Shown here in pieces: positions 39,592-64,000 of a DNA stretch of 64,000 bases. The stretch is from assembly GCA_963666055.2 (NCBI GenBank), contig CAXWPH010000002.1:288001-352000 (forward strand), in the 5' to 3' direction. Position 1 is the first letter of the stretch. The number at the start of each line of letters is the position of its first letter. Source of the DNA: Acidobacteriota bacterium (GTDB lineage Bacteria > Acidobacteriota > UBA890 > WLXD01). The notes beneath the pieces were generated by a model. That model was not told the origin of the DNA and searched no databases. It saw only the letters and a program-made list of their open reading frames with translations. A program made the position numbers and the translations under genes.

Positions 39592-39790
39592 CGCAGCACC
39601 GAGACGGGCTCTCTTCCGAACCCGTGCGGAGTGGAGAGCACCCTGGAAGGGCTTGAGGCCACCGACGAGCCTCCATTGTTGTCGACTTCCCACACGCTAT
39701 CTTGTGACCTGTGTTCCGAACTGCTGGCGATCGCGCTCTTTCTCCGTGAGCATGCGGAGGTGTTCGCACCCGGCCCACAACAGGTCAATG

Positions 39791-39843
39791 GCTCGTCGGG
39801 CTCATAACCCGAAGGTCGCAGGTTCAAATCCTGCCCCCGCTAC
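39791..39843 (+). tRNA. 3' fragment of initiator tRNA-Met(CAT); att-site core, not a complete gene
   Basis: GCTCGTCGGGCTCATAACCCGAAGGTCGCAGGTTCAAATCCTGCCCCCGCTAC; the 5' acceptor strand and D-arm start are absent. Confidence 0.88.
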
Positions 39844-39862
39844 TTGGTTAAAGCCCGTAGAT

Positions 39863-41110
39863 TCAGTCGCTTACGGCGACCGGTCGGCGGGATTTTTCTT
39901 GCGGCTGAGATTCGGAGGGTGCCACAGTGGGTGCCACAAGTGCCGGGTTGACGCCGATCTCCACGTCGGGAAGAACGTGCCCGTACACGTCGGCGGTGGT
40001 CTGAATCGAGGCGTGCCCGATCAATCTGGATACGGTGAACAGCGGCACTCCCGCTCTCAGCCAGCTCGTCACTCGGGTGTGCCGGAAGCCATGGAAGCCG
40101 TGGTCTGGCACCTTTGCCCTGCGCACCAGCCGCTTCCACGTCCGGTGCCGGAGGTTGTCCGATTCGAGCGGCCCACCATGCGGGGATTGCACGACCCACG
40201 CCCCATTCTCGCGACCCTCGGAAAGTGCACGACGTTCTTGCGTCGTTCGCAGTGCCATGAGGCGTGACGCCAATGCTGGGGCGATAGGCACGACACGATG
40301 TCGACGCCCTTTCGTGCTGGTTTCCTCCCCGCGCACGCGAGCGCGCTGCACGAGCACTTCACCGCGTTCCAGATCCAGATCGTCCCAACGAAGCCCGACT
40401 GCCTCGCCGATGCGCAAACCGGTCGCTGCGAGCAGCTCAAAGAGCAGGATTTGATCGTCTGACTCGCTTAGCTTATGCGCCGCATCGAGCAACCGCTGCA
40501 ACTGGTCAGGCGTCCATGCCTTGGGTGGCCGGCGCTCAACGCGCACACGCGGCAAGACATCACGGGTGCCCTTGATCGGGTTGATCTCAAGGTACTCATC
40601 GGTGACCGCAGACGACAGCATCGACGACAAAGCTCGATGCAGGTTCTTCACGGTCTTGGTCGATAAGCCGTCCCGGCGTGCCTTGTCGGCGAGCCACACC
40701 CGAACGTGCCGCCGCTTGATGTCGGTCAGCGGCAAGTCGCCGAACTCCGGCAGCAGGTGGTTGCGCAGGATCGACTCGTAGTTCTGCCGGGTCGATTTCT
40801 TCCAGCCCCAGCCATGGGCGCTGTTCTCGTTGATCCAGAGTGCCGCGTACTGCCGAACGGTCGGGGCGGTCTGGGAAGCGATGCTCGGATCTAGCTGGAC
40901 GGCAACCTGGCGGAGCGTAGCTCGCAGGTCATGTGCTGACGTGCTCGTGGCCTCGGCGATGGCGAGCTTCCGCTCGATCTCGGCGGCGACGAGCTGGGCA
41001 GCGCGTTTGCTCCGACCGACCCGGACGGAGGTGCGAAGCTGCCTGCCCTTGCGCACAAAGACCCACCAGATTCTGGAGCCGCGTTGCTTCTCGCGAACGG
41101 TGACGCCCAT
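39863..41110 (-). CDS. Phage/island tyrosine integrase
   Basis: N-terminal arm-binding-like domain, SAM-like core, TGLRIGE, HGFRHT, LIGHAS..TADVYGH. Confidence 0.96.
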   Translation of the reverse strand: MGVTVREKQRGSRIWWVFVRKGRQLRTSVRVGRSKRAAQLVAAEIERKLAIAEATSTSAHDLRATLRQVAVQLDPSIASQTAPTVRQYAALWINENSAHGWGWKKSTRQNYESILRNHLLPEFGDLPLTDIKRRHVRVWLADKARRDGLSTKTVKNLHRALSSMLSSAVTDEYLEINPIKGTRDVLPRVRVERRPPKAWTPDQLQRLLDAAHKLSESDDQILLFELLAATGLRIGEAVGLRWDDLDLERGEVLVQRARVRGEETSTKGRRHRVVPIAPALASRLMALRTTQERRALSEGRENGAWVVQSPHGGPLESDNLRHRTWKRLVRRAKVPDHGFHGFRHTRVTSWLRAGVPLFTVSRLIGHASIQTTADVYGHVLPDVEIGVNPALVAPTVAPSESQPQEKSRRPVAVSD

Positions 41111-41112
41111 TG

Positions 41113-41445
41113 CTACCCCCCAGAACTGCCGAGCCGCCGGAGAACATCCCCCGCAATGCGTTCAGCCTGTCTCGCGTCATTGACCGGCTCATACCAGTCG
41201 ATCACGTCACCCCACTTTACGCGGAGATCACCGGCACCGGGAGGGCGGTAGGCAGGCAGTGGGTTCACGTCGCGGCTGATCCAGCGATGAACCGTAGCGG
41301 GGTCGACGCCGAGAGCTGTCGCCGTTTCAACCACGGACAGCATCGCGTCACGGTGTACGGCAGTGCGGTCGCCCGAAACGGCGCTCGCGAGAAGGGCCAC
41401 GTTGCGGGCAAGCTCGCGGACGGTCGCGTCCGGGTGACTATTCAT
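41113..41445 (-). CDS. Excisionase-like HTH DNA-binding protein
   Basis: MLSVVETATALGVDPATVHRWI HTH, directly upstream of the integrase. Confidence 0.8.
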   Translation of the reverse strand: MNSHPDATVRELARNVALLASAVSGDRTAVHRDAMLSVVETATALGVDPATVHRWISRDVNPLPAYRPPGAGDLRVKWGDVIDWYEPVNDARQAERIAGDVLRRLGSSGG

Positions 41446-41571
41446 ACCACCCGTCCCGTCGCGGCGAGAGGCTCCTCGAAGTTCACCTCGTGGCCGAATG
41501 GGTGGCCGACTGTTCCAGCGTTCCGCCTGTTCCACCCCCCCAGAGACAGAAGACGGAACAGGCAGGCGCGC

Positions 41572-41967
41572 CTAGTCACCGTCCTCCTCCTTGGCTTCCT
41601 TTGCGGCAGCGCGAGTGATGGCAACCCTTGCGCACTGCTCCCACCGCTGAAGCTCTTCATGGAATTGCGCATCGTCGTCAGGCGATTGCCGCGCAGAGAG
41701 CCAGAGATGTTCTACAGCGGCTTCGCTCGCTCGCACCTCTTGAGTGATCCAAGAGTCGGGCTGACCAGCTTGTTGGAAGACGCTCTGAAGCCTGGCCCAG
41801 GAGAGCGAGGCCGCAGAAGCTCGCCTTTGTTCCAGTTGGTCCTTACCTAGCCTGGCGGTGCCGCCACTGGCTCCATCCGGGTGGGCGCTTTGGTCGATTC
41901 TGTCCAGAACTCGCCGCGCTAGTTCTTTCAGCGATTGCGACTCGCTCGCTGCTTCTGTGTGCTTCAT
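41572..41967 (-). CDS. Hypothetical island/phage protein
   Basis: 131-aa ORF co-oriented with xis-int. Confidence 0.55.
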   Translation of the reverse strand: MKHTEAASESQSLKELARRVLDRIDQSAHPDGASGGTARLGKDQLEQRRASAASLSWARLQSVFQQAGQPDSWITQEVRASEAAVEHLWLSARQSPDDDAQFHEELQRWEQCARVAITRAAAKEAKEEDGD

Positions 41968-41975
41968 GTGACTGG

Positions 41976-61494: not shown

Positions 61495-61670
61495 TTAGGC
61501 CCTGGCGGCCTCAGCGACCAGACTTGCCACTGTACCGGCCAAATCGGTGCGGTTGTCGTCGTAAAGCTGGACCGTCTCGAGCATCGCGTGCCGTGAGTGA
61601 CGCTGGACGGCCCGCGCGTCGCCGCCCATCCTGTCGAGAGCAACCGTGATCGACGCATGCGCCCTTCGAG
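61495..61670 (-). pseudogene. XerC-like tyrosine recombinase C-terminal remnant
   Basis: HASITVALD..GDARAVQRHSRH..ETVQLYDDNR (box II with catalytic Tyr). Confidence 0.75.
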
Positions 61671-61877
61671 TAACTGAGAACCAGTCACCCATAAAGAAGG
61701 GGGCCGGACGGCCCAACATCCCAAGAAACAGCCGTCGGCCCCCAGCAACCCCTACGAGTGTACTGTCAAGTTAAGCTGATTCTTGCCCGCTTGGGCGCCT
61801 CGCCCAGACCGCAAAGGCCCGAATACCAGGGGTTTCCTGTCCTACGGGTCACGCGTTTCTTGCAGATTTCGAGTTAA

Positions 61878-63046
61878 GGAACCTCTGATCAATTCGGGTT
61901 CGATGGGATAATGCACGCGGATCCGATCACGCCGCCAGAGGGAGAAGGGAATGCGCCAGCAGACGCTTGCCGAAGGGTCCTTTGAGCAGTACCGGAAGGT
62001 GACCCGCCGGGAGCGGTTCCTGGCAGAGATGGATCAGGTGGTGCCGTGGGCCCAGCTGTGCGCTTTGATCGAGCCGGTGTATCCGAAGCCGAAGGGAGCG
62101 GGACGGCGCCCAGTCGGGCTGGAGAGGATGCTGCGCATCTACTTCATGCAGCAGTGGTTCAACCTGTCGGACCCGGGGGTGGAGGAGGCGCTGTACGACT
62201 CGCGGGCGATGCGTGCCTTCGTGGGGATCGATCTGGGACGGGAGCCGGCGCCGGACGAGACGACGGTGTGCAAGTTCCGGCACCTTCTGGAGACCCACGA
62301 GCTGGGCGTGCAGGTGTTCCACATCGTTGCCGAGCACCTGCAGGGGCGGGGGCTGAAGGTCAGCACGGGCACCATCGTCGACGCGACGATCATCACCGCC
62401 CCGTCATCGACCAAGAACAAGGCCAAGCAGCGGGATCCGGAGATGCGCTCGACCAAGAAGGGCAACCAATGGTACTTCGGGATGAAGGGACACTTCGGTG
62501 TGGACAGCAAATCCAAGCTCATTCACTCGGTCGTGGCCACCGCCGCCAATGTCCATGACAGCCAGGTGCTAGAGGATCTGCTGCATGGGCAGGAGACGCG
62601 GGTGTGGGGAGACAGCGCTTATACGGGCCGACGGGAGGTCATTGTCCGGTGTGCTCCCGGTGCCAAGGACTTCACCAACAAGAAAGGGCACCGTCACCGG
62701 CCACTGACCGAGCGAGACCGAGCTCGAAACCGCACCAAGTCGAAGGTGCGGGCCAAAGTCGAGCACCCGATGCTGGTGATCAAGCGCATCTTCGGCTTCA
62801 GAAAGGTCCGATACCGAGGGCTCCACAAGAACGCGCACCGGCTCTTCGTGACCTGCGCGTTGGCCAACCTATTCATGGCACGCAAGGTGCTGCTCGCGCA
62901 CACCTGAAACAGGCACCCTGAGAGGCCGCCGTCGCGGTTGAACCCGTCGGCAGCAGCTCGGAGGGCGACTGCATTCCCACCCTTATGCCGACCAGTTCCT
63001 CCAATCAGGCTCCATCCTGACTGACGGCCAATTGATCAGACCTTCC
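61878..63046 (+). mobile_element. IS5-family insertion sequence, intact, 1169 bp
   Basis: TIRs GGAACCTCTGATCAATT / AATTGATCAGACCTTCC (15/17) with TTAA target duplication (61874-61877, 63047-63050). Confidence 0.96.
61951..62907 (+). CDS. IS5-family DDE transposase
   Basis: TRRERFLAEM, QQWFNLSDP, IVDATII, WYFGMKGH.GVD, WGDSAY, RAKVEHP motifs. Confidence 0.97.
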   Translation: MRQQTLAEGSFEQYRKVTRRERFLAEMDQVVPWAQLCALIEPVYPKPKGAGRRPVGLERMLRIYFMQQWFNLSDPGVEEALYDSRAMRAFVGIDLGREPAPDETTVCKFRHLLETHELGVQVFHIVAEHLQGRGLKVSTGTIVDATIITAPSSTKNKAKQRDPEMRSTKKGNQWYFGMKGHFGVDSKSKLIHSVVATAANVHDSQVLEDLLHGQETRVWGDSAYTGRREVIVRCAPGAKDFTNKKGHRHRPLTERDRARNRTKSKVRAKVEHPMLVIKRIFGFRKVRYRGLHKNAHRLFVTCALANLFMARKVLLAHT

Positions 63047-63156
63047 TTAACTTGACAGTGCCCCCCAGAGGCCAGACTGCGGAACAGGCCGGTGCGCTTG
63101 ATCACCGTCCGCCTCCTTGAATTGCTTCTCGGCAGCCACAGTGATGTCCTCCACGG

Positions 63157-63684
63157 CTACCTGCTGCGGGCCTTTGTTTTCTGCGCGGCGCGTGGCGGCG
63201 CAGGACTCATGTCGCCCTCGGCCAGCTCCGTCAAGACTTGGTAGACGGCTTCTTCCAGAACGAGCTCGATAGCCTCGACACCGTCGCGGCTCGCGCCCAG
63301 GACCCGGTTTGCAAGGATCGGCGGCCACGACAAGAGCTTCGTGCGCACCGCGGCGATATGGTCGCCCCACGTCTTCGCCACGTCCTCGACCTCGAGCAGC
63401 TCGCCGGCGCGGAGTCGATACTGCTGTTCCGCCAATAGCGCTTGCGCGTGTTCCTTCCGTGCCCGCTCGCGCGCCACGTCGACGAACTCGCCGGCACCGC
63501 TGGCAGAGTCGCGCGCCCGCTTCCACGCCAGGCACGGCTCGACCTCGAAATCGGTCGCTTGACCGCGCCCGCGTTTCCGGCTTGGCATTCCGTCCGCTTC
63601 AAACTTGTAAGTCGTCCGCGGATTCACGTCGAGCGCCGCGGCGATTGCTTTGCGCGTGACCCAACCTCGCCGCCGCCGCGCCAT
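63157..63684 (-). CDS. Lambda gpNu1-like terminase small subunit
   Basis: N-terminal wHTH (RKAIAAALDVNPRT..GMP), ERARKEHAQA coiled coil, GELL, RTKLLSWP, VLTELA. Confidence 0.8.
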   Translation of the reverse strand: MARRRRGWVTRKAIAAALDVNPRTTYKFEADGMPSRKRGRGQATDFEVEPCLAWKRARDSASGAGEFVDVARERARKEHAQALLAEQQYRLRAGELLEVEDVAKTWGDHIAAVRTKLLSWPPILANRVLGASRDGVEAIELVLEEAVYQVLTELAEGDMSPAPPRAAQKTKARSR

Positions 63685-63954
63685 CTAGTCGTCGAGCCCC
63701 CACGATTTCAGCAGCGCGTCGATTTGCTTGATCGCCGCCCGCTCGGCTCCGATCGCCGGATGGTCGACGGTGTTGTTCTTTCCGTCCGTCACGATGAGCC
63801 CGTCGGCGTCGATGAGCTCGCGAGCGGCGCGCGCCGTTTTCATCTGTACCGCGAGCGCCTCCATAATCGCCGGCGGCGCGTCCTCGAAGAGCGTCGGTTC
63901 GACCTCGCGCCATATCTTCGCGCGCTTCGGCGACAGATGCGCCGGCGGCTCCAT
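63685..63954 (-). CDS. P27-family (HK97-like) terminase small subunit
   Basis: PPAHLS..KIWREV, IDADGLIV..G....HPAI, LKSWGL motifs. Confidence 0.82.
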   Translation of the reverse strand: MEPPAHLSPKRAKIWREVEPTLFEDAPPAIMEALAVQMKTARAARELIDADGLIVTDGKNNTVDHPAIGAERAAIKQIDALLKSWGLDD

Positions 63955-64000
63955 GTCTTGATCATCGCGCCCCTGGATGCTTGCTCACCGACACGGCTTC

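Follow-up and report, generated by a model that had tools for sequence, protein, structure and literature searches.

A P27-type core gene abutting a Nu1-type small terminase gene in a truncated Acidobacteriota island: possible remnant of a single lambda-type packaging module

Two genes of unrelated small terminase (TerS) families adjoin near the end of a 64,000-nucleotide stretch of DNA from an Acidobacteriota bacterium (the window; genome G000, contig C2, positions 288001-352000, a window position being the C2 position minus 288000), and no large terminase (TerL) gene is seen right after them. Does such a pair address two kinds of helper phage, as in the original prediction of a satellite that redirects, or interferes with, packaging by HK97-like and lambda-like helpers, or did it serve a single packaging motor?

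The gene pair and the truncated island

Two adjoining, unrelated TerS-family genes had been predicted from the sequence, and both ORFs were found at these positions, followed by a broken end:

63954-63685, minus strand: Terminase_4/P27-type ORF (89 aa), stop codon TAG at 63687-63685
63684-63157, minus strand: Nu1-type ORF (175 aa), start codon ATG at 63684
63063-63156, minus strand: tail behind the Nu1-type gene (94 bp), not TerL, homologous to part of the mini-island that lies at 41.5 kb in the window
61759-63062: IS6-type MITE (131 bp without the IS5), which cuts the element and shows no target duplication
61878-63046, plus strand: complete IS5 (1169 bp) in the inverted repeat of the MITE, with its transposase at 61951-62907 and a TTAA duplication

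The TAG of the 89-aa ORF abuts the ATG of the 175-aa ORF in the same frame, with no spacer; such stop-ATG abutment was not rare in this genome (30/4064 predicted genes). Contigs of public runs, some of them perhaps the source of this genome, showed no differences at the junction, and TAG-ATG was unchanged in a 151-bp piece that a different study had obtained in a 2019 run, although this piece reaches less than 31 letters past the codons on one side. None of the run contigs listed crossed the IS5 or had another continuation behind Nu1. An assembly error at the junction was considered and rejected: the run contigs agreed with the TerS side, and both flanks fitted one MITE. No sigma-70-type promoter was matched in a promoter search, and terminator-like sites were at chance level.

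No TerL signal was obtained in any frame of the 260 bp comprising the Nu1 end and the 94 bp behind it (GpA profile, E of 0.65 or higher), in agreement with the prediction that no TerL directly follows the pair. The next ORF (MAAEKQF) had been described as cut by a MITE end; this was correct but incomplete, the IS5 inside the MITE having been missed. The ORF had no family match in Pfam or PHROG, and its stop codon was supplied by the IS junction. The 94-bp tail ended halfway through a GCCTGTTCC...GGAACA motif. The MITE ends were identical to those of an element coding IS6 transposase NF033587, and the MITE was identical to a copy on C11 at 126 of 131 positions. The genome contained eight near-identical IS5 copies, one cut by a contig end, and at least three of the eight (C2:349878, C8:45001, and C15:912346) had inserted at the TTAA within an IS6-type inverted repeat. 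Left of the MITE, a short remnant resembling a recombinase C-terminus by eye (window 61495-61719; no Pfam or PHROG match) adjoined a VWA-like gene, several near copies of which were found in the genome.

The island remnant spans 7.4 kb, of which 6.5 kb lies beyond the window, with 6.3 kb between integrase and TerS:

63955-64000 of the window, minus strand: region upstream of the P27 gene
C2 352183-353816, minus strand: two orphan ORFs (242 and 288 aa)
C2 353923-353977, minus strand: intact GCCTGTTCC...GGAACA motif
C2 354015-354831, minus strand: two small ORFs
C2 ~354994-355950, minus strand: DnaD-like replication gene (rep), interrupted by a (TTCTTCC)x27.3 repeat
C2 355976-357104: HTH_17 and cro-like genes (minus strand), divergent from a cI-like gene (plus strand)
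C2 357101-358264 (window 69101-70264), plus strand: tyrosine integrase (387 aa), uninterrupted
C2 358414-358468 (window 70414-70468), plus strand: att, the 3' part of tRNA-Leu(CAG), the only copy on C2

Inspection of the sequence beyond 64000, which had been proposed for integrase, primase, and capsid genes, gave a mixed result: the integrase was present in a compact, PICI-like layout (regulators, a replication gene, and att at a tRNA), but the replication gene was DnaD-like and frameshifted, none of the 17 ORFs scanned matched a primase, and no capsid was seen. The island ORFs showed no match to AlpA or MerR regulators, the regulators present being cI/cro/HTH_17, and the two orphan ORFs had no match in a defence-system search. 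No capsid-morphogenesis gene, TerL, tail, or holin was seen in the 7.4 kb of truncated element. The perfect (TTCTTCC)x27.3 repeat (L001:9301-9491; C2:355301-355491) put the rep halves out of frame, and may represent phase variation, decay, or an assembly slip.

Since no target duplication flanks the MITE and C2 showed no second att, the island is truncated, and the missing TerL therefore proves nothing. Searches of 26 genomes from the class, of viral contigs with the single protein, and of species genomes gave no intact homologous element, one search of the species genomes yielding two canonical P27 loci; the P27 gene was detected in 1/61 and 1/26 genomes, its own only. The island is probably no longer mobile.

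Two proteins of small terminase families

The family assignments proposed for the two ORFs were borne out by profile searches (PF05119 for the 89-aa ORF, and phrog_57 and gpNu1 for the 175-aa ORF). The former contained a Terminase_4 domain (30.4 bits, cut-off 24.7), and also matched phrog_34561 and phrog_83, PHROG families of terminase small subunits; on the other hand, it remained below the cut-off of the TIGR01558 equivalog (25.9 versus 45.6 bits), for which the canonical TerS of L062 scored 47.3 bits. The top clusters of an atlas search with this protein were PF05119 (score 0.95), and its profile had no significant match among PDB sequences. The AlphaFold model (pLDDT 94.6) mapped end to end onto residues 26-121 of HK97 TerS (Z 7.5, rmsd 3.2, 87 aligned), which was the best match in both fold searches, if a modest one (rank 2 at Z 7.0; Foldseek E 0.13). 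According to PMC11331095, residues 3-23 and 125-145 of HK97 TerS are those that read DNA. By this modest fold match, the 89-aa protein is a predicted HK97-type oligomerisation core that lacks both DNA-recognition segments.

The short-P27 subfamily was represented by 11 loci, in 10 of which a phrog_16945-type endonuclease was located directly upstream, with the endonuclease profile built partly from 4 of those 10 and some loci being near-duplicates; Nu1 was directly behind the short P27 in none of the 11. (The endonuclease may be 'PLD-like', a motif reading of ours with no such match in Pfam.) At L062/L083 (two of the 11 loci, one lineage), the short P27 was followed by a canonical P27 TerS and an HK97-type TerL, and gp56 of Arthrobacter phage Coral (NC_048099.1), a member of the short-P27 group with 39.5% identity over 84 aa, was located ~4 kb from the packaging genes of that phage. 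The query P27 grouped with stand-alone short proteins ending at the same place, and a Nu1 domain was found in none of its P27 matches shorter than 250 aa, the part of 104 matches that was scanned. Judging from these sequence contexts, autonomous phages carry the short P27 as an accessory and do not use it as their packaging TerS, and a core-only P27 may have a role in interference. Accessory genes can thus be behind a 'terminase small subunit' match of ~90 aa, and two TerS calls therefore need not mean two helpers.

The 175-aa ORF matched phrog_57 (E 7e-26, residues 6-158), and a profile of this ORF and eight relatives, with which it shared 40-49% identity and aligned at full length, matched lambda gpNu1 (1j9i, E 5e-12) and RppC (6hlk, E 9e-6); the query itself gave no match with PF07471. 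By homology, the protein is a full-length Nu1-type small terminase, with a putative N-terminal winged HTH and helical C-terminal part. A GpA TerL was found downstream in 23/23 viral loci obtained with the Nu1 profile, a proportion that is likely inflated if, as we assume, the viral collection favours TerL-bearing contigs, and that was obtained with a GpA profile built partly from 6 of the 23 loci; GpA was confirmed by Pfam in 4 of the 23, and in L025 and L068. Because the GpA start was more than 94 bp from Nu1 in 6/23 loci (three of these six representing one phage), a 94-bp tail that is not TerL is compatible with a TerL further on. In a FastTree phylogeny, the query Nu1 paired with the TerS of a prophage in genome G011 (support 0.89), behind which GpA, lambda portal, and capsid genes are located. 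The endonuclease-Nu1 fusions of G000 and of the same-genus genome G002 were next to this pair (support 0.92), and GpA remnants behind endonuclease-Nu1 were clear at a G002 locus and weak at the C7 locus of G000.

Fused counterparts and rival readings

When the gene pair was sought elsewhere, the domain pair was recovered, but as fusions ahead of GpA that are not direct homologues of this locus. Terminase_4 and Nu1 were in one chain ahead of GpA at 4 of the 23 loci and at two more, together representing four distinct phages in IMG/VR (L044, L045/L046, L052, and L068/L069; proteins among P0119-P0203); at L044, the fusion was followed by GpA, lambda portal, Clp protease, and capsid E. Because TerL is directly behind the same domain pair, these loci come near to the arrangement that the original prediction had named as evidence against itself. 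A fusion-profile search gave 310 matches, among 120 of which, those listed, 74 were P27-Nu1 fusions, with P27 first in 74/74 among the matches listed. The TPxxR tail, which we take to be a P27 motif and the start of which was visible in the canonical sequences here, was kept in 0/33 fusions with a locatable domain end. The P27 family of the query aligned end to end with the N-domain of the fusions (hhalign 93%, E 3.5e-7, 88 columns). By FastTree, the query P27 was outside the fusion clade (mean identity 23%), in a tree based on short alignments that covered 40 of the 74 fusions and, among the P27 matches, those of rank 2-60 under 210 aa. With the query outside this clade at ~23% identity, the P27+Nu1 pairing therefore seems to have more than one origin, and appears from these sequences to have been assembled twice independently. 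The query as a split member of the fusion family was rejected, the trees being against it and pairwise BLAST giving no signal.

None of 135 matching records of cultured phages covered the fusion by 80% or more, and tandem or fused P27+Nu1 terminases had no description in the literature searched, to which subscription papers were mostly external. A lone Nu1-type TerS in satellites is already known. The novelty is the two-fold TerS of P27 core and Nu1, and the fusion family accounts for more of its value than this copy does.

The best explanation for the locus, and a somewhat probable one, is that the pair is a remnant of a one-motor, lambda-type (GpA) packaging module, the TerL of which was likely lost. 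One motor is favoured over two kinds of helper because the same domains are fused before a single GpA. By analogy with lambda gpNu1, Nu1 would use its winged HTH to bind sites of the cos type and its C-terminal part to recruit GpA; the C-terminal part of lambda TerS binds TerL (PMC6739421). The P27 core, presumably made together with Nu1 by translational coupling, would be an accessory ring-forming partner, and would not select DNA in the way of HK97 TerS; TerL and the far att would have been lost afterwards through IS-driven decay. In favour of this one-motor explanation, close Nu1 relatives of the host group precede GpA or its remnants, the far att is missing at an IS6-type end without target duplication, and TerL-like genes (phrog_2) are present in two sister islands at tRNA-Leu. 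Against it, no uninterrupted copy of this element was found, so that we infer the loss of TerL, the DNA behind Nu1 resembles a mini-island rather than TerL, the integrase-TerS distance of 6.3 kb is PICI-like, and the query P27 is outside the fusion clade, with no Nu1 behind its own subfamily (0/11). A more specific proposal, that the P27 ring core and the Nu1 DNA-reading subunit form a two-fold TerS acting as one machine for GpA motors, is tentative. If it is true, a two-fold TerS fused in at least 74 protein clusters of uncultured phages would have been re-created here, independently, as two coupled genes, and a ring borrowed from HK97-type phages would carry lambda-type recognition domains; if the island was a satellite, a core on its own might in addition poison TerS rings of the HK97 type.

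The main alternative, a rather unlikely one, is a PICI-like satellite without TerL that depended on a single lambda-type helper; Nu1 would redirect the GpA of the helper to the island, and P27 would be a passenger picked up from a phage packaging region. According to bioRxiv 10.1101/2022.09.14.508007, the PICI core has five components and the median PICI is 9.5 kb; counterparts of four of the five (integrase, regulators, replication gene, and TerS) are present here, and the 7.4-kb remnant is near this length. There is also no TerL directly behind the pair, and portal genes of both families are absent from the genome. The only GpA sequences of the genome were short fragments. However, the element is truncated, its replication gene is DnaD/O-like and not a primase, and close Nu1 relatives in the host group precede GpA or GpA remnants. 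An improbable alternative is a satellite with two helpers, with Nu1 for lambda-like phages and a P27 core that redirects HK97-like packaging or poisons the TerS ring of the helper. Both family assignments hold, and an HK97-type capsid fragment is found on C10; moreover, there are precedents in cos SaPIs, which pac phages as well as cos phages package (PMC6233219), and in TerS-binding redirectors such as Rpp (PMC6739421), and a core without DNA arms is the expected look of a dominant-negative. On the other hand, redirection requires DNA recognition, for which this core has no segments, short P27 proteins occur in autonomous phages with their own terminase (Coral gp56, L062/L083), and a PF03354 TerL was found nowhere in the genome (95.7% complete). 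Dual-helper packaging as originally predicted is thus disfavoured by a P27 protein without the HK97 DNA-recognition segments, from a subfamily that is accessory in ordinary phages, and by P27+Nu1 fusions before one GpA TerL and lambda-type head genes; what is left of the two-helper reading, now improbable, is chiefly that a DNA-blind core would interfere with packaging. It is very improbable that the locus represents a single P27-Nu1 fusion gene, split by a nonsense codon or read through at TAG: the shared frame, the absence of a spacer, and the same order and domain ends as in natural fusions agree with this, but the relatives with which the query P27 groups are short stand-alone proteins having the same end point, and no scanned P27 match (under 250 aa) has a Nu1 domain. 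TAG ended 1475/4064 predicted genes. Pyrrolysine read-through was also considered and rejected: the 'tRNA-Pyl(CTA)' called by ARAGORN at C5:65608-65685 has a mispaired anticodon stem and is probably spurious, and no PylS over the cut-off was found.

Known systems and related loci in the genome

In the usual view, the lambda small terminase reads DNA by external HTH domains, and that of HK97 threads DNA through its ring, with the terminal arms reading. A natural chimera of an HK97 ring core and a lambda HTH subunit, which occurs both fused and as coupled genes, would allow a direct test of whether ring and reader are interchangeable modules. The present locus shares the winged-HTH Nu1 with the lambda gpNu1/gpA module (PF07471, PF05876, and PF20454), its relatives being followed by GpA and lambda portal, and differs in the extra P27-core gene coupled upstream, no GpA, and no cos site identified. 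The helical core is the same, in the model, as that of HK97 TerS (PF05119, TIGR01558; PDB 8POP, 6Z6E), but the protein here has 89 aa, with neither DNA-recognition segment, and is below the TIGR01558 cut-off, and no HK97-type TerL or HNH is beside its gene. Coral gp55-gp56 also has a short P27 not next to TerL, whereas gp56 is behind a phrog_16945 endonuclease in an autonomous phage, with no Nu1 after it. The fusion TerS (e.g., IMGVR_UViG_3300028462_000009) has the two domains in the same order with the same boundaries, but in one chain, with a P27 of a different clade and with GpA and head genes present. PICIs with their own TerS or Rpp, as described in PMC6739421 and bioRxiv 10.1101/2022.09.14.508007, resemble the locus in the order integrase-regulator-replication-TerS at a tRNA att; in contrast, the island here has a cI/cro switch, a DnaD-like rep, and two TerS-type genes, no capsid-morphogenesis gene was seen, and its far end is missing. 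The island at this locus is probably dead.

The genome contains many decayed islands, and several other loci carry packaging-related genes. At C10:28361-30002, there are pieces of two head genes, one for a prohead protease of the Clp type and one for a major capsid protein of the HK97 type, with no portal. Three loci combine a phrog_16945 endonuclease, which elsewhere is usually upstream of a short P27, with Nu1 (C7:34882-36045, C13:71.1-72.3 kb, and C15:330.6-331.6 kb); the two are fused in two of the three loci and split on C15, and behind the C7 locus there is an HNH-like remnant (by eye) plus a weak GpA trace. The endonuclease-Nu1 loci of the same genus in G002 (L027-L029) are compact islands too, some with GpA remnants behind. 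Three tRNA-Leu islands of ~7-10 kb (C6:278-287 kb, C6:322-329 kb, and C14:493-504 kb) contain genes for an integrase and for a primase or helicase, together with one resembling TerL (phrog_2 in two, and in the third an unclassified ORF assigned by resemblance), with no portal or capsid in view; they may represent a kind of satellite that encodes a large terminase of its own. Many copies of the tRNA-Leu(CAG) 3' half are present, at 10 or more places on C2, C5, C6, C7, C10, C14, and C15, and these copies, several beside related integrases, read as a tandem island array scattered by rearrangement. Within the window, a mini-island remnant (39790-41970) consists of a tRNA-Met-like fragment (by eye), a tyrosine integrase (39863-41110), an excisionase-like gene (41113-41445), and a 131-aa ORF, and has the GCCTGTTCC...GGAACA motif in common with the element carrying the gene pair.
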